From: Catajapyx aquilonaris
Lineage: Eukaryota
DNA length: 62,376 nucleotides
Reading direction: 5' to 3'
NCBI GenBank assembly: GCA_000934665.2
Contig: JYFJ02002147.1
Location: 1 to 62,376, forward strand
A program made the translations under genes and the position numbers. The number at the start of each line of letters is the position of its first letter. Positions within the stretch are counted from its first letter, which is position 1. The notes under the pieces are model-generated. The model had not been told where the DNA came from. It made no database searches and saw only the letters and a program-made list of their open reading frames with translations. Of this stretch, positions 1 to 35,188 are shown in pieces.

Positions 1-849
1 GCCGCAGTGGCGCTTTCCCATGTTAAACTCGCATAGACGGTGGCGACACTGCGGAATTTTTCCATGAGGCTCCGTAATAAGCCGTGGGCTACTACTCTAA
101 GGACAGTAGGGACCATTGGTATTAGGACCGTAGGCCTAACTGACACGAGATAAAGCCACACAAAAGCATATAGGTTGTAGAATCTGGTCGTCACTGTATG
201 GTTTATCCTACATGAGCAGCAGGTATGTTAGTGCGGTGCCATTACTGCTCTTGGAATGACCTCTCTGTGGACAGATTTTCGACCTAGTTCAAGCCAAAGG
301 TCACATGTGTCCCAACATGATCACTTCTTCATGTTATGGCATTTACACGGCTTATTTCTTGGAGAACCAAGACTACGGTTTACCCTATCTCTCTAATCTT
401 CTGTAGAACCAGGATTTTAGCAGTGATTGGGATGATTTTATTGCAACATAGCGAGCAGTGATTTTCTCCTTACGCTTTATATTGCCTTAAAAATATTGTC
501 AAGGAGCCATGTATGCATATATGACGCCGAAGTGGCTTACGAGACAATTAGTGTAACTAATAAGCTTTGTTTTGCCATATGCAGCACAAAAATTCTAGTA
601 GAACACGATTGCTATATTGGAAGGTCCTAGCTAGTCTTTTAAATTTAGGGTAATATGCATAACACAAAATCCAGTTTTATCCAGTTTTTTAAAGAAGCCG
701 GCGAGCACAGGAGTTATTCTTCTGAATATTTCTCCCGTTTGGTAGTGATGAGAGCAATACCAATATACATGGTGTTTATAACTAGTCCAGCCAACGGCCG
801 TCAGGGTATTCGTTGGGCCAAAACAAGTCGAAAATGTAGGGGGAGAAAA

Positions 850-1618
850 CCCCTTCGCTACCAGATACGCCCGAACCACATAGATTTTTTTTGGCTTACG
901 CGTACTCCGAAGATACGGACAAGATATTTTACACATGATAACAGCACCATGAATGTGTCTGGAACAATTTTACTCGCCTATAAGTCCCTAAATTAATTTC
1001 CAAAAAAGGCTATAAAAACTCGAAATTCTAGTACTGTCGACCAACTGTTAGGCTGATTTAATTATGAAATACGTGAAAATATGCGGAATAACAACCTTGA
1101 GAACCATGCCAGACGAATTTTCTGAACTTGTCGTACTTGTTGCGAGAAATAAATTAATACTTATTTGCGGCTTTCTGGCACTTCGGAAAACTCCCAGATT
1201 GATTGGCTTCTCGTGAAGTACGCTGATTTCAGCAAATTCATCTCATACTCATTTGGGAGTTTTCCAAAGTCCAGAAAGCCGCAAATAAGTATTAATTATT
1301 TCTCGCAAAGTACGACGATTTCAGGAATTCGTCTGGCATGGTTCTCAAGGTTGTTATTCCTCATATTGTCATGCATTTCATAATCAAATCAGCCTAACAG
1401 TTGGTCGACAGTTCTCGAATTTCGAGTTTTTGTAGCCTTTTTTTGGAAATTAATTTAGGGACTTATAGACGAGTAAAATTGTTCTAGACACATTCATAGT
1501 GTGTTTTTCCTGAACGGGTAAGTATAGCTGTTATTAGTTGTAAAATATCTTGTCCGTATCTTCGGAGTACACGTAAGCCAAAATTTGTGTGGTTCGGGCC
1601 TGTCTGGTAGCGAAGGGG
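850..1618. mobile_element. Foldback non-autonomous element with piggyBac-like ends
   Basis: About 350-bp imperfect inverted arms (850-1197 and 1252-1618). Ends are CCCCTTCGCTACCAG / CTGGTAGCGAAGGGG, with TTAA at 1619-1622. The left TTAA is missing. No transposase ORF. Confidence 0.85.
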
Positions 1619-1632
1619 TTAACGAGGTAGAC

Positions 1633-1785
1633 GACCAAAAACATTGGCCGGTGGTTGCCGAAGTTGCAGGATATGAGCGGTGATCTAATCACTTCTATGA
1701 AAAAGGTGACCTTGCAAATCCCAATAGTCGCGATTTTCACGCTCATATCCTGCTTCTTCGGCAACCATTGACCATGTTTCTGGTC
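1633..1785. mobile_element. Small MITE-like hairpin
   Basis: GACCAAAAACAT..TGGTTGCCGAAG..GCAGGATATGAGCG pairs with CGCTCATATCCTGC..CTTCGGCAACCA..ATGTTTCTGGTC. Confidence 0.7.
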
Positions 1786-1914
1786 AAGGTCATTTTAACA
1801 GTTGCTCCCTCTACATTTCTCTCCCCTACATTTTCGACATCTTTTAGCTCAAGGAATACGCTGACGGCCGTTGGCTAGACTATAGTAACAAACACTCTGT
1901 ATTTGTTGTCGATA

Positions 1915-1973
<59 letters not shown>

Positions 1974-1984
1974 CCACCACCACC

Positions 1985-2039
<55 letters not shown>

Positions 2040-2040
2040 T
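1915..2040. repeat. Compound microsatellite (TAT)n(CCA)n(CTA)n
   Basis: Three adjacent trinucleotide tracts, directly visible. Confidence 0.97.
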
Positions 2041-2953
2041 TAAGGGTTTGCGCCAATAGTTTTAGCACCAATATTACGAACAATGTAACCTTGTAATAAT
2101 ATTATCAATTTTACAACTATATGTCGCAAAACTTTATTACTGGCAGAACAAAACGCGGAACAAAAGGAAATTGCCTATAATGGAATGGGATCTTACTAAA
2201 AAGGTCAAACTTTTTTTCACGAGGAGCTCGGTATAAGTTTAACAGCTATAGTTACCCCGTTTGTAGTGAACCTTGTAGTGAGAGTCCGTATTCTGTACCT
2301 GTTATGTCAGTTAGTCTGGTTTTTGCAGGCACGCTTTGAAGTACTAATGTATATTCAAGTATCGCATTTTAAACGCCGTCAATGAGGATGCTTTCAACAG
2401 TAATTTGTATGTTGCTATAATGTACGGGACCTGATGTTTTTTATCGGGGCTTCTGAAAGTTATGCATGAATCAACCTAATATGTGGCATAATCAATCGGA
2501 TGTCGGAAATAGCTTTTATCATGTGTGCGTAGATCCAAGCATAGCTCGTGTAATAATTGGCATCCATAATATCTCTACATCAATATTCAACTGCAAGATA
2601 ACTTTTACGCAAAATATTTACAAAGTTGCGTATGCTGCCCTAAATAGGTTGGTGGTATGAACGAGACCAACGTTGGATATTTGTATGAAAAATGAAACAC
2701 GGGTTTTATAATTTTCAGGATAAAGTCAGAGTGTGGCTACAGCTTCACAGGTGGTGCCACTAATTTTTTTTCCACGCAATGATATTTATAGACTTAAAAA
2801 CACAATGGCGACATGTCGTTCTAGTTTAGGTGGTATAAAGAACATTTTATGTTGATGGTTATACTGTATATCCTACGCTTAGCATTCTAAGGGGGTAAGT
2901 CATTAAGGTTCCCATGTCTGATGTAGCCGAATGAAAGCATCAGTGGAATGCAA

Positions 2954-3138
2954 CTACACCATCGAACTTGCCGGGTGGGCAATGTTGGAATTCCAGTGGG
3001 CAATAGGAGGGTGCCCAGCACTAAGGATTGCACAATGGCGATAAGGCTCGAAGAGGTATCGTATCAAAGACAAATCCTGAGACATGGTACGATTACTATT
3101 GGTACTCATGGAAGTCCATGTGACCATGTCATCGCAGA
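2954..3138 (-). CDS. Candidate phase-1 terminal coding exon of the dsx-like gene
   Basis: Acceptor CCATTCTTGCTCACAG with an upstream CTCAC branch-like motif. Phase 1 matches the exon B donor. It reads (V)CDDMVTWTSMSTNSNRTMSQDLSLIRYLFEPYRH...HPASSMV* for about 61 codons, and GC is above the flanks. No homology recognised. Confidence 0.3.
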
Positions 3139-6100
3139 CTGTGAGCAAGAATGGTGCTGCCGAGTGAGCGGAATGTAGACTATTATGGCATTGTTTAGCA
3201 ACCTTCTAGAGAGCCAATAAACAATACCAAGTTGACATGTATAACACTCAATCTGCTACCGATACCCTTGTTCTGCCTTAGCATGCAAACTTATGGCACC
3301 ATTTGTGGACACTATGTGGTGACACACCCATCAACAGTTTTTGATGAATCTTCATAAGTGTCATATCCTGTGCACAAAGTATAGTCGCATCACAATGCAA
3401 ACGTCCTCAATAGTATACATTCAAGCCTTCAGTGTGCGATATACTGTACTGTATATAGATGGTATATAGAGTGACAAGCCATATCTTCAACAGACTATAT
3501 AACTCACTTCTTACGTTCGGATGAGGAACCAAAAGATATATACAGCGCACGGTGTATGAAATAAACAACCAAATACTTGAATGCAACCAATATCTATGGC
3601 AGAAAAAAACTACCCGGATCAGTTGGTTTGACATCACTATGACACTGTGGATTACTTGGAACTTCTCTCCTGTGACGGATCTATCTGTCGATAAACCTAC
3701 AACTGCAAGTTGAGAAATACTGGCAGAGAGGACTAAAAAGGGCAGTGAACAATAAAGGAGATCAGAAATAAGAAAGCAGAGCCAGACGATTGTTAGATAA
3801 GCATCCAGACGTGCCCAGTTAGCTCGTGACTCTTTGGCCCACAATATCTATAAACTGCGAACCATATTTGCCCGTTGTCATCTCGCCTCAAGGTATTTTT
3901 TCATCCTAGCTCATACTCTCATTACGATATAAAAATAAGTGAGGACACTGACGTTCAAAGCATGCCACCGACCCCATCTGTTTCTGTTTCAGTTAATAAT
4001 AATTAAATCACAGGTAATGAACCTTTCTGCCCTTCGCTTTGATGAACCGTTGCCACTATAGCATTTCTTGTTTTATCCCATCAGAGGTCGTTGCGGATTC
4101 CAGATCGCGTGCCATCAAAAGCCTCCTTCATGATGGTATCTCTCTCAAGTCTTTACATAGACTGCTGGCATTTACGATGTACCTGGCACTTCATCAGTAT
4201 TATTTACACTCGAATGAAATTAGAGTAGAATCATTTAAGCCTCTTGAAGCCCGTAATATGTTGACGACCTCGTCCGACCTACACTGAAATTTCCATGTGA
4301 AATGTACTACAGTACGATATATAATCTTTTTGTGTGAAGCTTTTAATACTTAGGGATATGAGGAGTATTGTGCCTATACGCAGCATCAATAGCAATATTG
4401 ATGGAGGCATATCTTGTTAACACATATAGTTGCTACGAGTTTATTCATGGGGCAATTATGCTTATAGAATCATCATATACTTTTCTTTAATGCAAAACCG
4501 GTAACCAGCCTCAGAATCATAGTGGAAATTCTCTCATGCATTAAACCAGCGGTATTAATAGGGATTTTTTTATTGATGATGAGTTGTCTGGAAACTCAGC
4601 ATGCGGAAGCATATTATGCATTCCATTATTCAGTTGTTTACTAATAGAGTTTGGTGCCACGCTGATCAAGCTCCACTTTTTGGCGAACGGAAAAATAGAT
4701 TTGACTGAAACTTGTTACTCTTTAACTCGCATGACAATTATAGTCTGCAATAAATGCTCCGCTCCAACCCAGGGTAAATACAGCAGATTATGGCTTACAA
4801 TCCCTCGACCAATTAAGGAGATAGTTTGCGGCAAATGCAACACTGTCCATTGCATAAAGGGAGAACAACATTGAGCACAATTGAAACAATGGCCTCCCAT
4901 CCAGTGCAGCTAAATTTCGCATATGGTGTTAGGTGTTAGTGACACACAAATTACCAGACAATGCTAGTGGCAATGTGATCATGTACCAGACACCTTTGAA
5001 TCACATTGTCATCCTGACACAACCCACGTAGAGGTCTAGGGGCTGTTTTACTTCCCCGTTTTGAGTGAATGGTGCACGAGTTCACCGCCGGTTAAAACAA
5101 ATATTAGCGTACCAGGGATGTGTTTCGCGACGGCAAAAACACGCGTTCCATCCACCGCCCATCAGAGAATCATGTAGCGCCTATTGGTACCGCATAATAT
5201 GAACGCCGGCAATGAATACAGAATACAGTACGTCCTGTGCTTGACCAGAGTATATATTAATAAGCAAGCTTTTGCACATATACAGCATATTAGCCTCATG
5301 TCCGCAAGTTGACTCGTGGGTTTTTTGGTTGTGTGTTGGTTAGCTGGTTATCGATTGCAAAAAAAAATATTTTTTGTCCCGGACGTTGGTGAATATCATG
5401 TTCTGCTCAATCCAGCAGACGCTTCCATTAGACATTGTCTGGGCTTCAACTTGCAGCGCTTATTGTTCCTATCCTGCACTTATAAGGTGTATGGCAATGT
5501 CCTTTGTGATTACGCACGTGGGCAAGTATCGAACCGGAACTGACAGTACGACGTTTCTATATAAACAAGATGAAACATAGCCTCATTTTCACCACATATA
5601 GACTAAGATTGTGCGGTACACTGCTTCCTTCACCGTTGGTTACGCCGCGCCGCGCAGGTGTGGCTTATTCACCATACAGTAAATGCACAGAGAAGGTTGC
5701 TCATTCATCAGATTTAATCAGTGAGCAAGTGATTTCAGGATGATTAATCCGACATGATGCGCCTGTGCAATCAAATTGTAGGAAAGACAAGCTGGACACA
5801 GCCGGCAGATGAATCAGTTGGAGCATCAAGGTATGGTTCGAGGTTAGTCGCAAGCCACGTGCATTTTGCCATATGAATAATGGACTAGTCAAGTCATAGC
5901 TGATGCTCGATTGACGTAACGCTATTAATTGAAGCTAATGAATAGAGTCTGGTGCAGACCGCTTCAAGCGTACGCCATGTTTACATTATTGTCATTGGCC
6001 TGTCGATACCATTTGACGTATTGAAGACATGCTCTTGCCCATGACTGCTTTTAGACACGAACGTCCCACTGAGAACCCCCGTCGTATGTCTGACAATCAA

Positions 6101-6949
6101 TTTTTCATTGCTAATTATATCTCCAATGACATGTAATGAATAGGAAGACCAGAGAGATGTGATAGCTTGTCATGCTATGGGAGGAAATTCCGACACCACC
6201 GTGACTTTCGCCAGATTTAGTCATAAGTTCATAACAGTCTTTATTTAGCAGAAATAATCGAATAAGTAGAATCAATAGACGCCCAGATGTGTATAATGTA
6301 CAAAAGATGCTAATTTATTTCGCAAATCAGTGGCCTTCGTTGAAAGTTCGTTAGTCCCGTAAAAGGGGAAAAAATTACTCGGCAAAACATTATGAAGTAC
6401 AGTTGAATTTTTCTCATTTTCAGACTTTAATCTGACAAGAATGCGCACACTATAAACAAAATTGCAAGTGTCTATGATATCATCCCTTTAAATCTGTTAC
6501 AGGCCGGATTCAAGAATCTGCTAATCCTGAAGTGGCAAGGCAGGGGGGGAAAAAAATGGTGTCACTGACACCTTGTGTAGGAGGCAGAGCTGGACTCTAG
6601 AGTCCATCGCAGGATGCTCTCAAAATTCGACAAAGTCTGATTGATTGTTGGATTATGCGCATCAAAATATATAACGTCGCATTTATTTTCCGTCACCGAA
6701 TACTGACTTGTGTAATGAATAAAGCCATCATACACTTACTTGTTACGTACAACAATTATTCTTCATAACTAATCCCGAAAAAAAATTACGTCAAAATGAG
6801 ACATTTTTTAGGCACCCTGTAGGCGCGAGTGTCAGCCGGATGATTATTAATGACTCAGCGCACGAGCCACGCTGCCTCATACAATGTGAAGTCTAAACCA
6901 CAAGGCTTCCGGGGGGTTTAAATCTTAAGGCCATAAGCCCATAACCGTT

Positions 6950-7070
6950 CATCTCTGAAGTCCCGAGTTCGATCCCCAAATCAGACAGACGCTAGACGGA
7001 TGAATTTGGTCACGTGGAAAGAGCCATCGGGGTACTCCTACTCTCCGAAAAGGTCGTCAGCATTCCTTCT
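6950..7070 (+). mobile_element. Degenerate SINE-like fragment
   Basis: B-box-like GAGTTCGATCCCC at about 6965. No clear A box or TSD. Confidence 0.3.
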
Positions 7071-10000
7071 ATGCCGTTGCCCTATGAAGTGACTCAACTT
7101 CTTCGTAACACATCCAGATTAAATTTCAGCCAGAATATATCATCCAACAGACATAAAGGGGTAGGGGTAGGGGGGTTAGAAACATTCGATATTCCACATA
7201 TCATTTTAAAAAATTAATGAGTACCCAGCAAAGTGTGTACTTGACAATTTCGCGTTTTTAGATTCGCAGTTTCGAAGGGCAAAACAATAAAAGCAGACTA
7301 TTCAAGGTGGTATAAATATAAATGGGTGGGGTTACGGGTTCAATCACTTGCTCTCCCGCCCTTCCACCTGACCTTCCCAACTTTTACAAACACGTGTAGA
7401 GACATAAGAGATCCCTGAACCTAAAGTGATTCATCCTAACAATTAAAACTGCAGTACTTGATACCACCCGATGTAATCTTCCAGGTGTACATATGATAAC
7501 AGCCTGCAGTACGCTCTAGTAATCACGTTATCTATGGTGTGAACTCCAATTGAACATTATTTAACCCTGCATAATTCACAAGCAGAAATTTTTTCCATGA
7601 AAAAAATATATTGCACCAGTTGGGAGAGGAAAAAAAAAGAGGTAATGGAGTATTGCCGGTCGGGAATAACCTACCGAACATTGAAACTTTGGTCTAACGT
7701 CTGTGTGAAATCATCGTCCCTTGAGGGTACAGGCGTACACCACAAAAAATCTTTATTACGCTCGCTAAAATTACCCAACAACAAACCCTCGTAAATTGCA
7801 CTGTAGACTACAGTACACGTGCAACGAAAGTGGAAAGAGGGGAGAGGCGGGGTGGCAGGGGGGGGGGGGGAGAAACTATGCTCCCCGGGGTGTGTATGTG
7901 TGTGTGAGGTGGGGGAATATTTCCATGCACGCGAGGCTTGCAATAATCTACTCTTATTCAACCTGTTGCATGGTGCCTCCCCCATGTCCCCCACCCTAAC
8001 CCCAACGCTCTCTGTCTGCCTCCCACCACCCACTCCCCCCTACCGTCTGGCTGAGCGTCGAGACGCCCATGACGCCAAATTCACAGAGTTTAGTACGCGG
8101 GCTATTTCCTCTGACAGGGTTCAACCCGCTCCCATATGGTTACCACACATCAGGCAAAATAACATCATCACTTCCCTTCCCCTAGGCAAGCCCAATCGGT
8201 TAATTTGGCCAATCAGGACCAGACATATTTTTTTTGCGACCGCTATTTCGGCTCATTCGCCGCTATCGGCAGCAATTTAGGCGTATGTCCCATCCACGGA
8301 TCTATTGTGCCCCCTTTGTGATTGGGCCGACACGCACGCGCCGATCGATGCAGTTTCATTTTCACATGTCCTGATATGTGTTGACTGTCATGTTGGTTTG
8401 TGAATTGGAATTTTGGAACATAAATAATATTTCGCACGTGCTTGCAGCTTTTGGTCGAATTTTCGTTCATATTTTATGAGCGTTGGGTATTCAGTGTCTA
8501 TGGACTCAATTATCTGATTAGGTGCCGAAATGTATGGTCGTTTTGTGCAGTGTAGTAGCATATGTTTTTGACGTTGGAATAGCAGTAAGTCTGACATTGG
8601 AATATGGCTCAAGTAGATATTTTCGAAAATGGCGAATTTTCTTTACTGGAATTATTTTTTTAAATTACCGAAAACTGCTCATTTGCATCTCTTGTGGTTG
8701 AAAAGTTGAGTGCAGTGTGATACAATGGTATGCGTGCCATAATACAAACATAGTCCAAAACCTGGAATTTGACATTGAATGTTGTATATGTCAAGGCTAT
8801 ATTTCGCACGAGCTTTTCCCGCTCAGTTAGTAAAAAAAAAAGTTCTCCACGTGTATGACTGTACAGTATGTTCAGTCTTGTATAATACCTGGTGAAATAA
8901 TTTTTATTATTGATGCAGTTATGAGAAACATGGGATGAAACCTGCACCTCATAAAGGAAAAACAGTGTAATAAAATATCTGTTGACACTCCGAATGCAAC
9001 CTTCGCCAAACACGTGTTGTTCAACTTCCTCGTTCGGTTCAAGGGTAGTCATACAGATAGTACTTTATATACAGTGCACTGCCATATTTTTAGCGCAGCT
9101 CCACGTGCACTCTACAGGAGCTGAGAGGAATGCGTCATGAATGCAAGTGTCGAAATTATGCACAATAATCTGTAATAGTGAATTATATGATATTACTAGC
9201 ATCAACAGTTGTCGCAATGACTCTAATTCACATCTGGTTGTCAGAGTAATAAGACCAGGATGAACGTGTGCATGTGCATTGGCGCAGTAGGCTGCATCAG
9301 GACATGGAGCGATAAATTAAGTTGCATTAATATTGTGAATAGTAGTTCGATGGATGTGTTTACATGCGGCGGCTCAGAAGGTATCTGATGGCATCATATA
9401 AATTTACGGCCATGTGCATCATTTTTTTATTGCTTGCGTAAGAACATAGTGACGCCTATTTTTATAAGCTGTTAGACCTGCAAGCTTCAGTTACAATGCA
9501 TGACTCATGGATGTACTAGTATATCTTCCTGATTTATATTTTGTGCAGTAATCATAGACAGTAACATATGTATTACACGATAATAAGCCTATTGTCCTAA
9601 TCGACTCTTGAAAGAGGCGGGAGATTGGTTACTTTATTTAATGACTGAAAATTAGTTTTTTTGTGTGTTATTCAACATTATAAAATAAGCTTTATAGGAC
9701 AGTGTATTTCTACAGGAAAATGTATACTTTGGTTTCAATTTCTGACAAGAAAAGATTACCGTATCATCAAAGCTTCCTTTATCATGAAATTCACAGACGC
9801 GCTCCAAGTGGGTATGAGACTGCTTGCAATCAGCCCTTTAATTCTCAAAATTACGTCTGTGATAAATTTACAGTGCAATACTGCAATATCTGTCTTCAGA
9901 TAATTGATAATATTGTATTTCATCAAAACAGTTGGCAAAATTTTGCATACACACTCGTGTTCAAAATGTACATTTTATTTAATTAAACTTGCATGCCACA

Positions 10001-13000
10001 GGCATTTCAAGACAGATGATTCGTTGTAATTAGTAAAAAATTACCTTCGATAATTTTTATATAAGATTGTATAATTATATTTAATCCAATTTACCTGCAT
10101 ATTTAGCCGTAAACAAACTGACAATTTATCCGCAACCTGTCACTTTCTGAAGGCTACGCCTCAAATCTTGACAGGCCTCTACGCAATCATTGTGCAGTCA
10201 CCGTAAGCAAATCTCTCAATTACCGCAAGCGTCTTCAACACGATTCTATCATCTCACCCCAGCAATTTCATCTCACAAGAAATGGACCAAAAGAAAACGA
10301 CCCCCACCTCCCCCGACACATAGTGTCACGTAAATACTCTTATCACATGACAGCTGTCAGACCGTAACTGGAATGCCCATTTCATGCCTCCTATACACTT
10401 ACCACATTCCCCATAATCTTAACATTACATCACTGTCACCAGAAATACACATGTGTTTATTCCCTAGTTTAACAACCTCACATACAATTCGCGAATTCCG
10501 CGAATATGACACCTGAAATTGCATGGGCTTGTACGGCATTGCGAATCAATATCAAAACCCGTGTTCTCGGTCAGGGAGCAAAGGCAAGCACGTGCGGCAT
10601 AAATCCGTCCTAGGTGCAAAAGACCCCAACTTCAAACCAGTCCTAATCGATATCTCTCCCCCGGTCTGTGCATCCACAGGGTTAATTCCCTCCGTTGGCC
10701 ATTGGGAATTGTTACCCAATTTCCGGATTATTACCCTGGTCGGGTATAAGTCCCGAGAGCGTTTCGCGTCAAGACACGCACAATGCTGCGTAGGGACGCC
10801 GGCTCGCTTCCCCTTCGGTCCCCATGCTGGACTCCCGCGCAGCGTCGCATCCTGGGCTACCAAGATGGAAGTCCCCCAACGCGCGTCTTTCCCACCTTGA
10901 AACGGGTTGTTCCCGCCCCTGTGCCAAGATCGTGCAACGAGTCGGAACTATTTGCGGAGACCGGCACGTGGCAAGGTCACATTCAGAGCTTTTGGCGAAT
11001 GCGCTTTCCCGCGCTGCGCGATAGATCGGGGTTTATACTATGTGATACGGAGAATAAAGCGGAGAGTGGGGGAGGGGAGAGGGGGGTTGATTGCACGTGG
11101 CGACCTTTGCTGAGGTCCGGATAGCGTCACAGGATACGCAAACACCAAGCCGACCGCAACCATCGAGACCGTGATATTTCGCGGAGTGACTCCTTATCGT
11201 TCATACCCAAGGTTATCGGAATTGTGCATATTGTAACTACTTGGTTTAAAACCGATGTCGAGACAATGTCATATGAGCGAAACAAATTTGCTGAATATTA
11301 AATCATGTAACAATGTCATATTGGTGCTAATTTTTTTGATTAAGATATTCATTTTATAGTGACATGATTGTTTAGATACAATATTATAGCACCTATAAAT
11401 ATTATGTAAATACATAAGGGCTGGGTGAATGTCCCCCCTACAAGGTCTTTGCACCATATTATGTCCGTATTGGTGACAACTTGAAACTAATAACTCGACA
11501 CAAGAACTGAACCTGTTACTAAATTTTAATATGAACAACCAAACAAGTTATAACCCTGTATAAGTAAATAAATAACTTCGTCAATCAAGGGCAGGCATGG
11601 TTTTTGTCCCACTAGTACCGGTACTAGTAGTAAGAGATGAATGATTCATGATATATACAGCAACAAAAGCGCATGCACCGCTCGAAGGCCCGCTCAATTA
11701 TTTCCGCAACATTGTCTGGCCGTGAGAAAACTCGTTTCATTCGATCCCAAAGCTAGTTTATAAGTCCGATTTGCAAATAAGGGGGGGGGGGGGTCTGGTG
11801 GGTGGGTGGGTGTAGGGAGTGCAAGGGGTTCACGGGTTGTCCTTGCCGACGTCAGCGTTGCACTTTAAGGTCATAGCTGCTTTACTGTAGCAACTGATAA
11901 CGTGGGCGAAAAATGTTTGCGTCCTTGAGGATTCTCCACGTGCGAGCGTCCGTTGGAAATAGGGAGACTATCGCACGCGGGGGCTATGACTATGCCCTTT
12001 GTAGACTGCCCGCCGACAGCCTACAATGTAGCCTTGATTATATACCCTTTCAAACATCGTCTCGCGATAAAGAAAATGTGATTCGGTTGACAAATGAATA
12101 TATGAATGTGACTCGATTCTTTCTGACCCTAAGCCACTACTATTGGAAGGTTAAATCCGACTCGAGACTTTGCGAAATTGTTTACCGACTGGCGGGGTGG
12201 GTGACGCCTGCTGCACTTTTGTCACATTTTACGCCGCAAGGGGTCATTCCATAATGGCTTGGAAAGTTGTTTTAGTACCGGTTCAACACAATGAAACAAT
12301 TTTTTAATATTCAATTATTCTAAACATTTGCACGGTCTCCTTCGACCACCCCCATTTTTTATTATGATTTCTTTCTTAGAATGTAGGGGAGGACACAAGC
12401 TGAATGACCTTTTTTTTAAAAAAAAAAAAAGTTGACTTAAATTGTCGGAGTTTTCTCAGGCCGCTTGTGGCATTGCCCTTGCACTTTGTAGCAATTATTT
12501 CCCGCGCTCTATTTTTAAACTATGAGCGTGCATATAGGGCTACCAATATGCGACCGGCGCGGCGTTCTTTATTGCGAGGACCTGCACTTCTTTTTTTTCC
12601 CAGGTGACCAAAAACATTACGAGTGTTCAATAATTGCAGGTAAAGTCGAAAGCCTCTGTACTGTAACCCCCAGTTGTCAAGCAATAATTAGGCCTACTAG
12701 AGCGGATGTAATCTAGGGGGCTAGATGCACTATATTTTAACGCCATACTTTGTATAGGGTGCTGGTGCCCGTTGGATATGCAAATGAAGTGCGTGGCGGC
12801 TGGCTATCTGCGTATATTATTGCGGGTTGTTTTGGTCATTTTGATTCGGAGGGAAATTACGGCTGGAATATGGGCAAGATTTAGGAGGTGTAGTAGACGG
12901 AATTGTTTCCGGTTTCGAAAAATAGTTACATGCCGTTTTGGTATATACTGGTAGTGTAGTGAATAATGGTATAAAATATGACGGCACGTGTTTCCCGTGG

Positions 13001-16000
13001 GAGATAATATGGTAGAGCGTGTCATTAATGTCAGATGTATCATGCAGTGCTAGAGTTAGGTAAGACTGTTTTTGGGGGAGGGGGGGGGGGAATATTTGCT
13101 GATTTCGGAAGGCTATAAATGGTTGATCGGCATTAGCATAAACTAGATGAAGAAAATGAGCTACACGTAAAATCGTGCATATTATTTACCCCAAATATGT
13201 TCGGAGGAAGAAACTGATTATGCATATCCTATTTGCTGACCTATACCGTATATATATATACTGTACGCTTTTCTCGATATAATGTGTCAAAAGTGCAAGC
13301 AAAAATGGAGATAATTTTTCACTTTTGCATATGAATATGTTGGTGTTATCTGATTAGCTTTTTTAAAAACGTTGCCTTCTACATGAACCTTAGTGACATT
13401 GTCGAACACCATGAAGGTGACGCTCTTTCTCGTCTGAAGATCAGAGCGGAAGAGCCGGTTTCTCACGCAATCTATAAATATAGGATACTGTAATAAATGA
13501 AATGCTCCTCGCCTTTTCCGTGCTTAATGACTAGCCCTACTATATACAGTATAGTAAGTCATGCAGTAACTTACATAATATAACTTACTGTACACCTGAG
13601 CCCTATACCGGTAGTCAAGGAAAGCGAGATTGCACAGTTGGTTTTACTTAATTATATTGCACGTGCACAAAATAAAACCACGAACACTTTGAATTTCTCA
13701 AGGAGAGAGATTGGTTTCGCTCTTTCATTAATTTGTGCTAATTGCCGCATAACATAGCGTTAACTGTATATTTAGTCCATACATAGTTTTCTATACAAAA
13801 CGATGGTGCTCGTAGGGAATGAGAAGTTTCTATTGGGAGATACTGTAGTTTTCAATAGATATTTCATCCCACCCTGGTGCTATCCGGCCACATCTAGTCT
13901 ACCCAGTCGCATCAAGTGTAGTAATTCTGAAGTGTAGTAGTATCAATCATGGGCAAGTTTCCTAACTAATTTGGAGCCATCTGTTTCTAGTTCAGACGTG
14001 GCTTTGCCGCCAGGGTGCACTCACAAAGTAAATAGACTCGGTGGATACTGGATATGTACTATGTGTGAGTCTATAACCACTCTGGGGAAACCTGTAAGCA
14101 TAAGCATCCTATAGGGTTTGCAATAATTTCCGGCCCACTGGATAAATACTACTATAGAAAGTGAACGCCCTAAGACCAGATTCACCGTCGTTGTACTGTA
14201 ACTATAATTTCGCTTCCCCCGATTCTTACTAAACTGTATGACCTAGCAGGAGACTACTCGTCGGTCAATAGTAACTTATTTTACCAAGTACTCTCTAACC
14301 AAATGCGATTGCGCTATACAGCTGTTACTTCAAACACAGAACTAGTAAAGTGGACAGGAATAATGATAACTATAACTATACAGCTTGGCATACTGTACAC
14401 GAGCAAATGCTCTTGTCGATAAAGTAATTGGAGTACTTCCATATGCCACTAATCATAAAATACCTATGCGCACCTATAGGTCTACTGTATGCATCTTATA
14501 TCATTATACAGTATGCCGCATCGTTCCCTGCATTTTGCACCAAAGAAACACTATGGACATTTCCATACAGGAACACACTGTATATTCTATAGCCAACAAA
14601 CATGAACAATACACTTACACACGACGGCAAAAGTGAATATTTTTATTGCAAAATTACTAGAGCATCCTTGCATCATCCCCGACACACTCTGCAATATTCT
14701 GCTATAGTCACGATTGTGACTGGCGGGATCAAGAAAACTGGCCGACAGTCATTCTCTCCGTGGACTTTCCAAATTTCTGGCTACGCCCATAACTAGTTCA
14801 AAGTATGTACTAGCAATCGCGATGAATTGCACCTCTTGAAGGACATCCTATGGCACGCCGAACCGTACTTGCAACAGCTGGTTTTAAGTTTAAACCTCCC
14901 GGACCAAACAATAACAAAAGGCTGTCACACACACCAGCCATGTTTTTCCACCGAGGAGAACAAAATATTCAGCTGGCCGTGAAACCAAATCTCATGCTAC
15001 TCTTCATAATCTGCGGTATATCAGCTAAGCTTTTTCAAACAAAATTTTTACCTCTACTGTAAGTACGTAGTGAACTTATACCGAATCATAGTACCGTATT
15101 TTCTGCATTTTGACCAGTGCGATGCCCGGACCAATGTAAGTGCGGAGAACCATATTTTTATTTCTGAAAATAACGAGCGGTTTTTCCCACCCCTATCGGT
15201 GAAAACAAGAGTTTATTAAATTGTCATTCGTAAACAAAGCGCATGGACAACTTTTGTCCTCAAAATAATGGTAAAAAATCAATTATCAATACAAATATCG
15301 CATTAACGAATATGCGACGATTAGCGTCGAATTAAGGAGAAATCAGAAGCAATAAACAATAGCGAAGATATATCTGTTGCCGCATTTCAAGCACCAAAAA
15401 CTTGACTGCAAATTATAATTAACGTTAGTAGAAGAGGAGAATGTGCTCCGATCCCAATATTAATTTTACAGCCCATAACCTGCAATATACCCTCTCGATT
15501 TCCCCGGCTATAGGTGTGCGATAAACTACACATTAATTATCATCCCTCTAGAAGCGCGGTTCCTACTTAACCCCCGTTCACAAATCCTAGTTAAAATACA
15601 GTAGCACCCTCGAGTCGCAAAAATAAAAATAAAAAACACACTATGTAACTCCTAGCCAGAAAATAGACTCCTGGTCTATCCGGATCCACCTCTCCCTGAA
15701 CACAAATAGCCTTTCTTATTTTAAGACAAAACAATGTTCAATGTACAGTACGTAGTACATCACCACAAGTGCAACATTACAAGGATACTCAAATCTACCT
15801 TACTAGACCAGGATCAATACACCCTGCGCGAAATAGTGCATATTGACACTTCGTCGATTCAAAGTTGGGCCAGACATACAGTACCACCCGGCGCATATCC
15901 TACAGGGTGTTACATCAACCAGAATCCAGCCTACTGCACTGGCTGGATAGCAAGTTGCATAGGGACTGACCTTGAACGGGGAGCAAAAGTAGGGTGAGTG

Positions 16001-16192
16001 GCCTGAGTGGCCTTGACATCAAATAGGGGCGGCTGACGGTTGGGCGCTCCCCCATGGCGCGGTACCTATAAAATGCTCCAAAATACGCGGGGGATGTCAC
16101 CAGGGTGCCATGTCTTCAATCGCCATTCGGCCAGACAGCCTGTCGTCTGTTGGAAGCTAGGATGGACAATCCATTCAGTCTGCCGAGTTCAA

Positions 16193-16359
16193 TCATCGAC
16201 TGTAGGGTGAAGAAACTCGGCTATCGATCGTCAGCCAGTAGGTTACTAGTACACGGATGGCGACAGGTTGTGTCATAATTTTACACAAAATTTCAGGGGA
16301 GTTGGCAAATTTATATGATTCGGGTTGAGTGACGGCCAGATCCGGGGCCTGAGGCTGGC
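16193..16359 (-). CDS. Candidate phase-1 alternative terminal exon of the dsx-like gene
   Basis: Acceptor CCCTCTGCTTTATGCATATAG|GC. In phase 1 it reads GQPQAPDLAVTQPESYKFANSPE...SSPYSR* (55 codons), within a GC-elevated block. No homology recognised. Confidence 0.2.
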
Positions 16360-19300
16360 CTATATGCATAAAGCAGAGGGTAATGGATACATTTATGTCG
16401 GTGTCGGAAAGATGAAAGGTACGGTAGAGATGAAGCTAAGCTCCAATTAAGAGCGTATGTACACCAGGTATATATGGCAGGTCTCCCGTGGTCCGGTGGC
16501 CACAATTTGCCATCGGTAACATTCTAATTCACACCCAGCATTCCACAGGTAGGAGAATGCTGCTAGATCAACCGTCACTCACCTGTCTAGATGCCCTCCT
16601 GTCTGAAGAGCCTCTGAGTTAGTGGTGACGACAAACAGCTTCTTGGGCCGTAATGTTTCAAACACTATGGCAACCCGTGAACAATTATTGCTATTAGGGC
16701 GTAAAGGCGTTAAAGGGATATGTTGTGAAAAACATGCGACTTTTTTTTTGTGCGAAACAAATTAGAGTGTGGTATGCTGACTGACTCAGTATTGTTTACA
16801 TCACACGCGTAGCATTATACGTTCTTTTTTTGTCCTACGAGTCAAGATTTGCTGAGTCATTTGTAATGGCTTTAAAGTAGCGGTATATCGCATGCGCAAT
16901 TTACTTCCTTATGCAGAGTTGCATGTGCAGCAATTGTTGAGTGTGATATGTGTTGGATGCACTACCCTAGTTGAAAATTGTGTTCAAAAATGCGTAAAAG
17001 GGTGTCCTCTTTGGGCATGTCAGTGAGTAAAGTGCATGCGAATGTACAGGGTGTGACGGATGGACGTCCAAATTACACATTGTGACATTCTCTTGATTTT
17101 AATTGTTTTTATATATAGTGAGAAAAAAATTAGGCCGATTGTTGTAGATAAAATTATGTTCCAATTCATTCTAAGTAAATGAAAATTTTCTGCTATTTTA
17201 TGGGATGAAACCGTTACAAATGTGTAAAAAGTGCATCATTGGCGCAGGTTCAAGGCAGTTTTTTTCCCAGGACTTGTAGTACCACACTAGGGCACTTACA
17301 TGGAGTCAGGTGGTTGAGATAGGGTGTTGTAAAAGATTAGAATGGCATGTAAACACGGTCTTGGAGCATGTCATTATTGATGAATATCAGGTCCATGTGT
17401 GCAATAAAATATTTTGCGATGTTCACGAGAAAACAACATTATTGGGTTGGAATTATATGCGAACTCTTTTAAGATTAGGAGATATTTGAGTTTCAGTGTG
17501 TAGGGTGAATAGGATCATGCTTTGAAAGGGCCCCTCTTTGTTTAATTCATATTTATTCAAGGTCAGTATATTTAGAACTGAAAGCATGCCATATATCAGG
17601 CAGTGAAATACTGAAAGTGGCAAAACTTTTTAGAGGGAACAAGTCCAGATAAGCTTCTATTTATATTTTAAGTAGTACAGCAAATTCCCATGAAGATTGC
17701 CGATGAACTTCTAAAACCATCTAAGTGAAGCCTTTGTTTACTGCATGTATGTATCATGTGTGAAATAATAATGCAATATATTAATAGCATAACGTACAGT
17801 TCTAATATTTGAACCTTGTCATTTCATTCATCCCATAATATTATTACTGTACACCACTGGACTGTATAATAGCGAACAGAGATAATTCTTTGTCCTATAC
17901 TTTATTTGCAAGGAAGTTTAAAATTCTTATTAACGATATTAATAACAGGAATGGAGGTAATATTTTCTTTGTTCATAATCCAGAAAAATGTACAGCAATA
18001 TAAAAGAATCAGGATCTTCATAATTATTCCCATTTGACAAAAATACAGTAGATGGAGCAATATATTATTTTATCATATTCACCCTCTCCAGTTTAGCCAT
18101 GTGACTTGAAATTGTCAGATAATTACAAGCATACTTAACTATAATGTTTGTAAATGGGTAATGGAACTGAGATCACCATTCACCTGGTTCAGATACAGTA
18201 TACCATAAGAGTGTCTTGAGGATGACATTACGCACAATAAACAAGTAAGACTCTGTGATTTCATTACACCAATTATCATGAGGTAATAATAATTAGTGAC
18301 GTCCACAAGTACAGAGAAGGACAACATGGAAACATGGTATCATTCCAAATACAACTGGTTGTTGCTTATCACATTAACAATGCGTCGTAATTATTTTTGA
18401 CGAGTTTAAAACCAAAGTAGAAAATTACGTCCACCCTGAAAGGGATATCAGTGTTCACCATATCTGTGATGAGGTCATAGAACTTTCAGGCCTCATTTCC
18501 TTATCCTGTTACCGAGTTCTCGTCAAGACCTACGAGGTGAAAATTATGACAGTATTAAACTTGTCATTTAATTTATCCTACATTTTGCTCTCACAACTAA
18601 AGCAATTATAATTATATCTCAACTTCGACCTTTCCTACTGTGGTTTTACAAACCCTTTGTGTAAAGTTGTGCAATTCCAAGGGAGGCAATAAAAGTGCAC
18701 AGAATAATAATACGAGAGGTGAGGAGTCAGAGAAAATACTGTATCAACAGGGAAGGTCCACTTCCTTCGCGTAGGGTTTACGGGCAGATGGATCTGACAA
18801 ACCTCAGCGTATCCGCCCGTACACCGCATGTACTTGAACTAAATGGACTTCAGTATTTCTGGCTCCGAACGCTCCATATTATAGTCCTGCAGATTTACGG
18901 GACACCAATACCATAAATTATTGAGCAATTAAAACCACATGGTGGCGCTTGACGTCCAACTTTGCAACCTACTACATCATGTTTGACAAATGTATTGCAC
19001 GTGTACTAGAAACGGTACAAAAATGTTCCATTTCAAGGCGTATCTAAGTTATATTTACCATTACTTGCTTAGACGGCTTCTTGCGTAAAAATGATATCAT
19101 GATGGGAAAGGCACAAAAAAATATAATAAAAAAGTACTGTATTTCATTCATTAGGTCTGACGACATAATATCGCACGCGTTTCCTATTTGCACATGTTAT
19201 TGCTCCAGTTACAGTTGCATTAGGCTTACAAATACATGCAGGTTGTATTTATGCACACGTGTAATTTCTTCGTTTAGGGCCAGTCTGAGCATCAAAAAGA

Positions 19301-19590
19301 GCTCATGATAAATCACCTGCTAAAGAATTGCAATGATTATGACGAGTGGTACTTGCGTTGCATTATGCTGCCGAACTTATGCAAATCCGACCTGTCTCTT
19401 GCCGCCTAATGTTCATGACCTTATTTTTTTCATGATCCTAACAGATTCACGATAAGCTGGACTACGTGGCATTTCAATCAGCCATTTGTCACTCTTCGAA
19501 AAAAAATACTGTATAAATAAAGTTCCTTTCTTAGGCTCACATTGGATAGGTTGCATAGGCCAGGACTTGCAGGATAGACCTTATGATCAT

Positions 19591-19963
19591 AACTCCCGCT
19601 GGGAATCGAACCCAAATCTCGGACCTCCAGTGAGATCCGTGTCTTGCCATTAGACCACAAGGAGTCAGTATATCAGTCATGTACAAGGAAAGGATATGCT
19701 TACAGGTTCAAAGATGGTCAGGACATACAGACCAAATAATCGAAACTCCCACTGGGAATCGAACCCAGATCTCGGACCCGTGGTGAGATCCGTGTCTTGC
19801 CATTAGACCACAAGGAGTCAGTATATCAGTCAGGTACAAGGAAAGGATACAGGTTCAAAGATGGTCAGGACATACAGATCAAATAATCAAAACTCCCGCT
19901 GGGAATCGAACCCAGATCTCGGACCGGTGAGATCCGCGTCTTACCGTTAGACCACAAGGAGCC
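19591..19963 (-). repeat. Three tandem tRNA-like (Pol III A/B-box) units, about 150-bp period
   Basis: Units start on the + strand at 19591, 19744 and 19891. The minus strand reads CTCCTTGTGGTCTAA(T/C)GG(C/T)AAGAC-CGGATCTCAC..GGTCCG-AGAT(C/T)TGGGTTCGATTCCCAG-(C/T)GGGAGTT, with recognisable D, anticodon-like and T arms. The two spacers are also nearly identical. Confidence 0.9.
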
Positions 19964-20126
19964 AGTAGACTATACGTATGTCTGTATTTGGGAAGGACTT
20001 ACAGGATGAATAAAGAAACTTTCCAACTTACTAATATGAAGATGGTCAATTCTGTCCAGCTTGACGCGATCTTAGCTGATACACAACCTGCACATACGGG
20101 CACAAGAAAAGGCAAACTTCACTTAC

Positions 20127-20607
20127 CATGAGGGTATCCATGCTGGTACAAGGAACCTGTTGATAGTGATTTCCCGGGGCCATTGATGGCCACATGGTGT
20201 GAGGATGAGGTTGACGACGGAGATGTCGGCGTCGCGTGGGATGGCCCTGCTGGTGGAGCTAAGGGCATGGTGAGGGGCAAAGTGGAAAGCAGAGGCGGTG
20301 GAGGGGCCAAGGTGGTACCAGGGAGGGTTGGAGGTGGTAGGGAAACTTCAGGGGCAATGGTCAGCAACGGGAGAGGTGGTGCTGACCGGCTACCTTCGGT
20401 GGTTGAGGCCGTTGAAGAATGATGTGGGAGACCTCCGAGAGGAGATGAGGATGCTGGAGATGCTGATGCTGACGGTCCTACTGAAGAGTCAGTGTTGAGG
20501 TCGTTGGCAGGTATGGGGTCTGGAGGTGGCAAGTCAGGCCCAGCCACTTCTTCTACTGACAGCTCGCCTTCTTCGCACCCCTGCGAAGCACGGGCTTCGT
20601 CTTGCGC
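20127..20607 (-). CDS. dsx: Doublesex/DMRT second coding exon (end of DM tail plus Pro/Ser-rich linker)
   Basis: Acceptor TTTTCCTATGTCGTTTCAG|GCG, phase 0, giving AQDEAR, which completes the conserved RRAQ-AQDE motif. 481 nt open, GC-rich, Pro/Ser/Thr-rich. Consensus donor CATG|GTAAGT at 20127/20126, phase 1. Confidence 0.9.
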
Positions 20608-23600
20608 CTGAAACGACATAGGAAAATATGCAGTGCTAACCGACAAATTATGAACAAGTCATTACTTTGAGGAGAGTAACAATAGCGTGGTTATAACAGT
20701 TTCAAGAATATGTTCATGGTTTGTATGCAAGGTAGTTTTGTGTTAAATTAATTGATGGCATGTCGATGTTACGTGATGTTACGGGCATGATGGCCTGAAC
20801 TTTCTCATCTCATGCACTCTGTTTCACATTTTCATGGCTCCTGAACGCAACATGGTTCCCATCAGTCACGCATGTCGTCAGGCAATGGTGTATTATACAC
20901 TTTGCTGGCAATATATTGCATTACGCCCATTTAAAAAAAAAAAGCGAGACCAAGTTGCATTATGAGAAAATTGCTGGAGTCGTTCATCACACCCGACCTA
21001 CCCAGGGAAATAAAAAGTCAGAAGAAAACATTGCATGTGAAAATTGTTGCCTGCTCAGCATTGACAGTCGCACACATATTTCCTGAAATACGCTCTTGAG
21101 AGCAGACAACCCAGCCACGAAATCTACACCAGTTCGCAGTATGGTTACACTAAAAATACATATATTTCGTCAACGACTGATGGAAAACATGTCTTCAGAA
21201 GAAACGAATACAAATCATACCTCCCATCCTCATCACGCCATTGCGGGTCTTCCCCGATCCCACTTTGCAGCGCTTAGGTGTCTGCTCCTGGTCTATTCAG
21301 CGCACCTGATGGCACGTGTATATACTAATCGGAATGCGGCAGTTCCCCCCACCCCCCCCCCTCCTGGATGGTATTGTGGTCAGGAACTTTATTTGCCGAG
21401 CCAAGCCCCCTCAGGTGACGAGTCGTGATTGTCGAGACCCGTCAAACCTCAGCCCTCATCTGCCCCGTGTTTCTCTCTGGGTTCCCCGCGAAAAGGCTTA
21501 CAAGGTGGAAGAATCGATAACCGCAAATCGTGGATGCTCCAAATTGGCAGCACGCGTGCCCTTTTCCTATATGTATATACCCGAGACAAATCTGTACTCA
21601 GGTACCCCACCCACTTCACTACTGCTATTCCAATTTGGCCATTGGGCCGTTCGGATTAATCAGCAGGTGAAATGAAATTAGATACTGTATGATCTGTTTG
21701 ATAGTGAGGTGGGAGGGGGATAGGGAAGGGAGGGAAATTACAGGTTGGGTTGTGATGAGCTTCAAGGACAGCAGGTACAGCTATAGTTGTAAGTTGTAGT
21801 GTGCACGTGCCAAATATGCAGTAGTCAGCAAAAATGGTTGGGTAATCCCTTGTGCGCAAACGTGTGCGACTTGAGTCACAAAAATGATATAAAAATGCAC
21901 TCCCCTCCACGTGGATTTATGTAATGATTGTTACACTGAAGTTCATGTTTTATCGCATCGGAGAAGCGGAACTCTCCCGCGGAGAAACGTTATGTCAATG
22001 TGACACGCACTGTGTTTGTATATTTACGAGACAAGTTTTTAGCGCGGGGTGATACCCGTGCATGATCTGAAGGTCGGTTTTTACGCCTATTTCCAGCCTT
22101 TCTACATTGAGCGACACATTTCCTCTAACACATATAATTCAAAAATAATTTGGTACATATTCCGTAAATACGGAATGTGTACCTAATTATTTTTGAATTA
22201 TGTGTATAAATTTTTTGAATTACACGATATTTCGAATATGTACGTATAACTTTTACAATAACTTTTGAATTATACATATTATACAATAATTTGTTGAATT
22301 TAATGTGTGTAATATATTGCATTATCTGCATATAAATTTTGAAAAATTACTGCTCATTCATCATTCGATGTTAGTGTCAATTCCAAACTGTACACTATTT
22401 TCCAGTAATTATTAGCAATTTTCAGCTAATAAACTGTCCTATTGATATTTCAATAGTTACCCATCCATATGAGGCATACCAATTAATCGACACCGATTAT
22501 AAATATTATTGGCCAACATTTGACCCGTATTACTCGCATCGTGGTTTACTACAATTTGTCCCGCCGCGCCGCCGCGCGCCGTTCTGATAGACTGCACTTT
22601 TTAACCAACTTGTGCAACAGCTTACCTATTTTAGTGCATATATCATATAACACTGCAGGCGGGGTACACAAACTGAAGCAAATGCACTGTACCTACACCG
22701 AAGCAGGTACATTTCGCTTTATAAATATCCCCCCCCCCCTCTCTCTCCCTTCAATTCGTACTGTATGATACAGTATTTCGAATGCAAAGTCTTTCTGCAC
22801 TTGACAAAAAAAAAATCGCTAAGAAGTATCACACGTTCGCACTGAGTAACTCCGCAAACGCAATTACGGATGCGGAAAATGCGATCCAATTTAGTCGTCG
22901 CTGAATGGCAAGCTATTTAAATGGAAATTATCTGCACTACCGAGTGTAGTCACCTTTGCACAATCTCATCTAGCTCGCAAGCGACTGTATATTGACCTTC
23001 TCATTGAAAACCGGATGGATGCCTATATCTACAACCCTGCGTGAGTAAGATACAGTCTACAACAAAAATCTTGGCGAGCAGCAAAAAAAAAAAAAAAAAA
23101 AATTGTTTTACACGTGCCGGTAAGTTGGTGCAATTCGAAATGGGTGGGTGCAAGTAGAGGGTGGTGAGGGGGGGTACAGTATAAGGGGGATTGTGCCTTG
23201 AATGGTTGCCAGGGGAGTCCGGGCAAGTTTCGCGACGACCTACGGAAGGGGGTGAATGCAGCGGTTGAAGGACGCGCACGTGGAGTTTTCTATAGGCTCA
23301 CTTCGGTGAGCTCGAGTGTCGACGTCATGCGCGGGGAGGGCATTTACATTGTAAATGCGCGCGAAGAGCACATGCTAGCGTGACCCAAAAACCGGACCTA
23401 TTTTGGATATGCGGCTTAAGCAGATAAGGGTTTATTATGGTGTGTTATTATATATATACAATGCAGATTTGAGATAGATATGATGGAAAACTATTTTGGA
23501 TGGTCAGTTTTGTTGTAATGTTAGGAATGATATTAGGTGGATTCAACAGGTGCATCGTTGGCGGATGGGGTGAAACGCCTTATTAGGATGTAGTTTAGGA

Positions 23601-23785
23601 CCGTCTGAGGCGGTTTAATGGCCAGGTTTTAGCCGTGCAGAACCAAAATTTATTCGATCGGTATATCAGTGAGTCGGGGCACGCAGGTTGGTATATGTAC
23701 TGCATGGATGTTATGGCGGCAAAATCGGAGTGATATTTGGATCAATGAATTCTCGGCAGTCAGTTATACACATTTTCTTATTATA

Positions 23786-24347
23786 CAGGGTGTTTATTGT
23801 AATTCTGCAAAGACTTTCAGGGGTAATAGAGGGGACCAATACAAGTATTTTTGACATAGGAACCTGTGTCCGGAAACGCCATCTAGAGGGGGTTCATAGA
23901 CAAGGAATGGGTGCGCTCAGACTCTTCATGCGGGAGGCGCTAGGCGAGCGGACTGTTTTGTTGATAGATGGCGCTCGAATAATAAACACTGATGCGATGT
24001 GCCATAACCTGGCAACAGCAGAGCCATCTAGCAGCTAAAGTTCTCCTCCTAGGAGATGCGCGGATAGTCAACAGCGCATTTGTTGTTGCCAGGTTATGGC
24101 GTATCGCGTTGTTGTTTACTTACAATGACGTGATACGCCATAACCTGGCAACAACTGCGCGCCACCTATCAACAAAACAGTCCGCTCTCCTAGCGCCTCT
24201 CGCCTGACGCGTCTGAGCGCACCCGTTCCTTGTCTATGAACCCCCTCCAGATGGCGTTTCCGGACACGGGTTCCTATGTCAAAAATACTTGTCTTGGTCC
24301 CCTCTATTGCGCCTGAAAGTCTTTGCAGAGTTACAATAAACACCCTG
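23786..24347. mobile_element. Tc1/mariner-type non-autonomous element with long TIRs
   Basis: TA|CAGGGTGTTTATTGTAA ... TTACAATAAACACCCTG|TA. About 190-bp inverted arms and a TA target duplication. Three internal copies of GCCATAACCTGGCAACA (one inverted). Confidence 0.9.

Positions 24348-25471: not shown

Positions 25472-25473
<2 letters not shown>

Positions 25474-25547
<74 letters not shown>
25474..25547. repeat. (TTA)n microsatellite
   Basis: Directly visible. Confidence 0.97.
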
Positions 25548-28500: not shown

Positions 28501-29040
28501 CTTATTACTTAGAAGTAAAATTATGGAGGAATCTGATTACGCAATGACAAAGTGTCAATGACTTAACATTCATTTTGATAATAAACATTGAGGGATCTAG
28601 ATCAAGTTCTTTCTATGCAGATGAATGCACGAGGGAGTAAGCAATGGTTTAAGGTATTTACACTGTGCAGGAATATATATGGAGGCAGTTTACGAAGAGG
28701 GTGGGGCTTTGCCCCCACTGGATTATTTTAGATTTTGGATCAGCTCCAGGATATGTAGTAGTGCAGGGTTAGAAATGTGGAAGATATGCGGATAGTAGTA
28801 GAGTATTATTGTTCGTAGTAAAGGCTATTTTAGAGGAGTGTTCAAAAAAAAAAAGGTGGTACAAAATGCTCATTTTTTTGAGGGGAGGATAGGGAAGTGT
28901 GCATAATATGTTAAGGAAGGACTGGTGAATTAAATATTGTACAAAATATTATAATAAATATCAAATTTGGCCTTAATATAAGTGACAAAAATATTTTTCC
29001 AGTACAGTATGTTAGTGTTTCTTTCTATAAAATTCATATA

Positions 29041-35114: not shown

Positions 35115-35117
<3 letters not shown>

Positions 35118-35188
<71 letters not shown>
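35118..35188. repeat. (TTA)n microsatellite
   Basis: Directly visible. Confidence 0.97.

Follow-up and report, generated by a model that had tools for sequence, protein, structure and literature searches.

E-boxes in a doublesex gene of Catajapyx aquilonaris suggest, without proving, a direct action of the juvenile hormone receptor

It is established that juvenile hormone (JH) binds Met, that Met pairs with Taiman/SRC, and that the dimer binds CACGTG E-boxes, the best known of which carry a 5' CTC flank, as at Kr-h1. The core of the JH response elements (JHREs) of insect Kr-h1 is given as the 11-bp word GCCTCCACGTG, and a 9-bp form, CTCCACGTG, is reported to have been used for Met targets in Daphnia (PMC12818400). 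We analyzed a stretch of 62,376 nucleotides of the Catajapyx aquilonaris genome (contig JYFJ02002147.1 of assembly GCA_000934665.2, hereafter the window), which carries part of a doublesex (dsx) gene. A previous reading, made from the letters alone (hereafter the sequence-only reading), had noticed a dense cluster of CACGTG sites in this gene and proposed a homotypic field of basic helix-loop-helix (bHLH) enhancers that would wire hormonal or circadian input to dsx. Our analysis suggests, without proving it, that the JH receptor acts directly on dsx.

The locus resembles several described systems in part. It shares with the Kr-h1 elements (k-JHREs, bound by Met-Taiman/SRC) the same core, since the window has one 11-mer and seven further 9-mers; its sites are likewise upstream and intronic, and their density and flanks are those of the Kr-h1 locus of this very genome. 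It differs from them in its target, in having more G than C flanks, and in that the dsx sites are known from sequence alone. The type of element is therefore a known one, and the candidate "undescribed system" of the sequence-only reading would be new in its target, dsx, if true. In Daphnia, the same 9-mer is reported to mark a newly wired JH target in the sex-differentiation pathway (PMC12818400; PMC5667737). However, two 9-mers lie upstream of vrille there, in a route from JH and Met through vrille to Dsx1, whereas seven lie inside dsx here. The Daphnia precedent of methyl farnesoate acting on Dsx1, which the sequence-only reading had invoked, is thus indirect. In a stag beetle dsx is also linked to JH signalling, but the effect is described as the reverse: Dsx sets the JH sensitivity of tissues (PMC3894178), whereas the arrow proposed here would go from the receptor to dsx. 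The enhancers of clock genes bound by CLK/CYC also have several CACGTG in non-coding DNA; unlike them, the dsx cluster is depleted in T-flanked sites, and our searches of the assembly did not turn up Clock, cycle, or period. We found no report of Met/Taiman sites in dsx at the level of titles and abstracts, in a search that left most subscription papers outside. The placement of the dsx genes of non-insect hexapods is described as unresolved (PMC9290531).

The CACGTG sites of dsx and their density

The field has two main parts within the gene:

5515..13665, no strand: peak of 15 CACGTG sites, most likely in dsx intron 2; G flank at 11 of the 15 sites, no T flank at 14 of the 15
21313..35599, no strand: the other part, with 14 CACGTG in intron 1, including four JHRE 9-mers (21905 +, 23277 -, 28251 +, 30948 +)

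All 15 positions given for the cluster by the sequence-only reading proved exact (5515, 5856, 7011, 7391, 7816, 8435, 8848, 9011, 9102, 10589, 10965, 11094, 11937, 12985, and 13660), as did its count of none at the start of the window (0 sites in 1-5514). Its chance rate, around one per 7 kb, was too low. The genome has 59,620 CACGTG in 285.6 Mb (0.209 per kb, i.e., one per 4.8 kb), and 67,574 copies of the reversed control word. At the genome rate, 1.7 sites are expected in the 8,151 bp of the cluster (Poisson 4.5e-10), and over 2,000 dinucleotide shuffles of this sequence the mean was 1.5 and the maximum 9. A scan test of the 62-kb window, which takes into account the picking of the densest stretch, gave 0/100,000 with the rate of the genome and 6e-5 with the richer rate of contig C1. 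Relative to a genome sample, no hexamer is more enriched in the cluster than CACGTG, and none of its nine one-letter neighbours (taken as reverse-complement pairs) is enriched there.

For comparison, 40 random stretches of 10 kb (from contigs C5-C1999) have a mean of 1.9 CACGTG and a maximum of 9. The one with nine sites is a minisatellite and was dropped, leaving 39 stretches with a mean of 1.7 and a maximum of 5. At the start of C1, 18 tiles of 10 kb have between 1 and 8 sites each, with 9 in the best 8.15 kb. A genome-wide bias for CACGTG is ruled out as the cause by the genome count and the random stretches. The sequence-only reading had made its proposal depend on a density outside the genome-wide distribution and on sites that belong to no repeat family. 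These counts agree with the former, and the single-copy state of the region agrees with the latter; a single fragment of about 50 bp there is repeated elsewhere:

6939..6994, plus strand: short dispersed-repeat fragment with a tRNA/SINE-like head (SINE, short interspersed element; labelled by eye), the sole repeat found in the cluster

The fragment matches 6 other places in a search that ignores very common words, has no CACGTG, and stops before the site at 7011. We found no tandem array in 5.5-13.7 kb. A repeat-borne origin of the sites (satellite, SINE, or miniature inverted-repeat transposable element, MITE) is ruled out, as there is no tandem array and the sole multi-copy fragment lacks the motif.

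The excess extends beyond the cluster. The whole window has 42 CACGTG for 13 expected, of which 17 are in its part of intron 2, 14 in intron 1, and 11 upstream. The body of dsx (1-36,520) has 31 sites, for around 7.6 expected at the genome rate. The cluster is thus the peak of a gene-wide field of 31 sites in 36.5 kb, given which the probability of finding as many as 15 within 8.15 kb is 0.034. First described as lying in the 3' part of the dsx locus, the cluster is intronic and is not isolated. This is no general trait of Dmrt or developmental loci, a possibility ruled out by two sets of loci at background density: five other Dmrt genes (16 stretches with 0-4 CACGTG each) and 30 neighbourhoods of bHLH genes (0-4 each, 25 sites in 92 kb). 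A search for conservation in metagenomes returned 80 loci, mostly of other Dmrt classes and on short contigs. Three of the 80 have a dsx-type DM domain by eye; they span 1.3-5.6 kb, have no CACGTG, and include no close relative with introns.

The host gene was delimited as follows:

36003..36521, minus strand: dsx coding exon with the DM domain (PF00751); ATG at 36521, end ...ALRRAQ, donor GTAAG
20608..36002, minus strand: putative intron 1, 15.4 kb, from splice signals and the structure of the paralogues
20127..20607, minus strand: Pro/Ser-rich exon, starting AQDEARAS... and ending in phase 1; homologous exon in both paralogues
1..20126, minus strand: intron 2, extending past the contig end, with a putative join to contig C3318

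A candidate for the matching dimerisation exon (OD2, PF08828) is found at C3318:19426-19566 (minus strand). Its start phase fits the end phase of the second exon of the window, and it starts with the same homologous residue as the paralogues. Furthermore, an identical stretch of 95 bases is found, in inverted orientation, at the ends of the two contigs (C990, i.e., the window, and C3318), which would fit a break of the assembly at a small inverted-repeat element. Hence, this copy of dsx probably continues on C3318, and intron 2 is the most likely location of the cluster. Because of the matching exon on C3318, this intron would be at least 24.4 kb long, vs around 1 and 2 kb in the short paralogues. 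Given this putative join, the gene has both the DM domain and the Dsx dimerisation domain of a doublesex.

The genome has six DM domains, three of them of the dsx type; the others presumably belong to the Dmrt99B, 11E, and 93B classes, which they resemble. There are three Dsx dimerisation exons: the one standing alone on C3318 and two adjoining the short paralogues on C2408 and C3545. These paralogues, which bring the number of dsx copies to three, are close to each other in sequence, have DM, Pro/Ser, and dimerisation exons, and combine small introns with a background density of E-boxes.

Flanking letters and the Kr-h1 locus

The extended JHRE words were searched in the window and in the genome. 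In addition to those of intron 1 given above, we found:

8845..8853, plus strand: JHRE 9-mer CTCCACGTG, exact match
9099..9107, plus strand: JHRE 9-mer CTCCACGTG, exact match
11934..11942, plus strand: JHRE 9-mer CTCCACGTG, exact match
30946..30956, plus strand: full 11-bp Kr-h1 core GCCTCCACGTG, 1 of 69 in the genome
52684..52692, minus strand: JHRE 9-mer, exact match, 16 kb upstream of the dsx start codon
10589..10598, minus strand: E-box whose 5' flank is that of MFBS1, the selected consensus probe for Met-Tai (GCCGCACGTG; probe from PMC8683598)

The eight 9-mers of the window compare with 0.34 expected, and its single 11-mer with 0.015. Given the E-boxes themselves, the 9-mer makes up 8 of the 42 sites of the window, vs 1,534 of the 59,620 in the genome (2.6%; binomial 1e-5). 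The excess is present in the cluster (3/15, p = 0.006) and in intron 1 (4/14, p = 0.0004), while the controls have 1/66 (random sites), 0/27 (other Dmrt loci), and 0/25 (bHLH loci). Seven of the 9-mers fall in 22.1 kb; among the first 100 matches in the genome (contigs up to C72), no stretch of this length has more than three. Two CACGTG probes are reported to be bound by purified Met-Tai (PMC8683598), and their 3-nt flanks (four words) are found at 11 of the 31 sites of the dsx body vs 4 of 66 random ones.

The cluster is also marked by the letters that it avoids. T flanks 1 of its 30 sides, vs 48 of 132 at random sites (Fisher 1e-4), and the commonest flank is G (GCACGTG in 11 of the 15 sites). 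The 5' T or GT flank of USF/MITF-type sites is thus not what the cluster shows, and USF, one of the candidates of the sequence-only reading, loses ground. In the random genome sample the commonest flank of CACGTG is T, above the share of T at other flank positions, and this excess perhaps reflects a USF/MITF-type promoter motif or a repeat.

Four contigs of the genome carry two 11-mers, and one of these encodes Kr-h1, with zinc fingers up to 84-87% identical to proteins named Krueppel homolog 1:

C972:12,000-30,000: Kr-h1 locus, 23 CACGTG; 11-bp JHREs at 13503 and 14961

In the 17.9 kb lying 5' of the Kr-h1 coding exon there are 23 CACGTG, 15 of them in the best 8.15 kb; T occurs at 2 of the 46 sides and the 9-mer at 6 of the 23 sites. 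The locus was chosen by its 11-mers, and density and T avoidance played no part in the choice. The dsx field matches it in density and in flank profile, and when a flank matrix is trained on Kr-h1, it tells the 31 sites of dsx apart from 66 random ones (area under the curve 0.77, p = 1e-5; 0.74 for the cluster alone). Kr-h1 is the only other non-tandem field of such density that we encountered. One site of C972 matches the Tribolium k-JHRE over 13 letters, which suggests a conserved link from JH through Met to Kr-h1 in this lineage.

Readings of the dsx field

We favor, with about even confidence, the reading in which a dispersed JH/methyl farnesoate response field resembling that of Kr-h1, through which Met/Taiman would act on dsx, is densest at the cluster. 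The CACGTG sites in the introns of the gene match those of Kr-h1 in density and in flanks, and the genome encodes Met and, with a weaker assignment, Taiman/SRC. A PAS-B exon on C1542 has 66-77% identity to Met-like proteins, two of them named Methoprene-tolerant and the best from springtails, and a bHLH exon on C2292 has 66% identity to a named Met. The Taiman/SRC-like PAS-B of C355 is a weak match (E 0.015, NCOA1 matches only). Beyond this, we infer the occupancy of the intronic sites by Met/Taiman, the direction of its effect (raised dsx transcription at high hormone), the target promoter, and any role in sex determination, as well as the connection with the dimerisation exon. How much Dsx is made, or when, would then track the hormone titre, and so would sexual differentiation or maturation, by a route that needs no intermediate such as Vrille. 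A bolder version, in which the long dsx copy responds to JH as a primary target and is connected to Met/Taiman no less heavily than Kr-h1, while its two short duplicates lack such control, is tentative and in our view rather doubtful.

Several observations weigh against this reading. The random sample is small (39 stretches), hence it gives a bound on the genome-wide rank of the cluster. JHRE words are not above their reversed controls genome-wide (1,534 vs 2,192 for the 9-mer, 69 vs 73 for the 11-mer), and therefore single copies are mostly background. Among the gene-body sites, 24 of 31 have no CTC flank, G being the commonest, and plain E-boxes at Tribolium vrille are reported to give no JH response (PMC12818400). 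The comparison with the probe flanks is post hoc, and 3.8% of random sets of four words match as often. The separation by the flank matrix rests partly on T avoidance. The 9-mer count of Kr-h1 (6/23) is partly selected, because this locus was picked by its 11-mers, which contribute two of these 9-mers. On the other three contigs that carry two 11-mers, the stretches examined are without a field (2-6 CACGTG per 10 kb). Finally, the remainder of dsx on C3318 has 6 CACGTG in 23.9 kb, none with JHRE-type flanks.

The field may instead be functional and serve other CACGTG-binding bHLH factors, either repressors of the Hairy/E(spl)/Hey/Cwo type that would silence dsx beyond the domains in which it is expressed, or Myc/Max/Mnt, which would tie dsx to growth. 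The G flank that dominates the cluster is compatible with Myc/Max and with factors of the Hairy/E(spl)/Hey type, there is a mild excess of CACGCG (3 vs 1.5), and among the HLH matches there are candidates that we take to be Max, Mnt, Hey, E(spl), hairy-like, and cwo (the latter on C929). These names were assigned by eye, as were all gene names other than Met, Kr-h1, and dsx. T avoidance is reported to separate Myc-Max from USF sites (PMC8431614) and is thus not specific to Met. Because of this fit and of the candidate genes, these factors are the main rival of Met/Taiman, even if we deem them unlikely: they leave unexplained the excess of CTC flanks (p = 1e-5) and the full 11-mer, the bHLH neighbourhoods are at background, and the candidate cwo locus has 4 CACGTG in about 1.5 kb, none in the preceding 8.3 kb, and no 9-mer. 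A field with no function at all, i.e., a local excess due to chance or mutation and singled out among many windows and motifs, is in our opinion less probable still. The cluster was indeed picked from 1,289 scanned windows of this genome, C1 reaches 9 sites in 8.15 kb, and no conservation emerged from the metagenomes, which gave no close relative with the introns. Furthermore, CACGTG clusters beyond Poisson genome-wide, partly in tandem arrays (4,657 sites have a partner 20-250 bp away, for around 2,800 expected in a hand estimate). Yet the scan probability is 6e-5 even at the C1 rate, the DNA is single-copy, the neighbour hexamers show no excess, an independent flank motif from the literature is over-represented among the sites, and the only comparable non-tandem field encountered is at Kr-h1.

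A Met/Taiman field could also serve a different transcript, starting at an internal or antisense promoter of intron 2 (a non-coding RNA or an isoform lacking the DM domain). Two observations fit this idea: the peak is 23-31 kb away from the dsx start codon, and its densest part has the following feature, a possible internal or antisense promoter:

8192..8407, no strand: four CCAAT boxes in around 215 bp, in the densest part of the field, mid intron 2

We find it improbable, as the same signature runs through intron 1 up to the DM exon, none of the 75 open reading frames in 1-20,100 reaches the Pfam cut-off, and Rfam finds nothing in the cluster. The circadian or photoperiodic input considered by the sequence-only reading, through CLOCK/CYCLE enhancers, is weakened further, because cycle, Clock, and period were not found. 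Neither Clock nor cycle is among the 11 PAS_11 matches, among the 50 of 56 HLH matches that were read (of the remaining six, three were assigned by contig to other PAS genes and three went unread), or among the 4 matches of a tango PAS-B exon query, all of which are lower bounds in a fragmented assembly. The period family has 0 matches, a result that does not show absence in 20,583 contigs, and there is one TIMELESS-family locus (C5377). The clock-type flank, CACGTGA, is at background. CACGTG is the canonical CLK/CYC site (PMC12818400), but losses of cycle and period are reported in a blind soil hexapod (PMC6938034), a loss of the canonical clock is possible in this genome as well, and we consider CLOCK/CYCLE a very remote candidate. 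Hence, of the proposal made by the sequence-only reading, a non-random single-copy field of bHLH sites in dsx is supported, its function as an enhancer is putative, and the flanks (9-mer at 8/42 sites, Kr-h1-like signature) favor the JH/methyl farnesoate receptor Met/Taiman.

If Met/Taiman does act on dsx in this way, hormone titre would directly set dsx transcription at the base of the hexapods. The published links between hormones and the sex-differentiation switch are, in the accounts cited above, indirect (Daphnia) or reversed (beetles). A direct link would stand between crustaceans, in which dsx is controlled by transcription, and insects, in which it is controlled by splicing, and JH-dependent sex determination or maturation could have arisen from that state. 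Taken together with their flanking letters, the density of E-boxes may help to recognize JH targets in raw sequence. The locus supplies exact sites, and the genome adds Kr-h1 as a positive control and the two paralogues as negative ones.

Other elements of the window and of the genome

We found no RNA family of Rfam in the cluster; outside it, the window has four tRNA-like matches. Just within intron 2, at 19,592-19,961, lie three tandem tRNA-like units of around 150 bp each (Rfam tRNA, 34-39 bits), which are probably a SINE array; a higher-scoring tRNA match is found at 51,658-51,739. Inverted-repeat (MITE-like) elements occur at 780-1880, 23,780-24,350, 39,930-41,580, 46,870-47,010, and 53,280-54,880, none of them in the cluster and some with matches on other contigs. 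A protein gene nested in intron 2 is ruled out by the 75 open reading frames mentioned above (at least 62 aa), three of which had sub-threshold matches.

A second word, ACGCTC/GAGCGT, is enriched in the cluster (10 copies vs 1.5 expected, at 7511-13425 of the window). It is flat in intron 1 and at Kr-h1, its copies have no common flanks, and its enrichment is unexplained. Elsewhere in the genome, eight matches to the JHRE 9-mer (7 sites) are found at C51:7,575-134,190, on a contig of 174 kb where around 0.9 are expected. C51 is a possible further JH target, and its stretches likewise have 2-6 CACGTG per 10 kb. In the window, the 9-mer at 21905 sits 3 bases from TTATGTAA (21905-21924), which we take to be a Vrille/E4BP4-type consensus, and further copies of TTATGTAA are present on the plus strand at 11402, 31654, and 35543.

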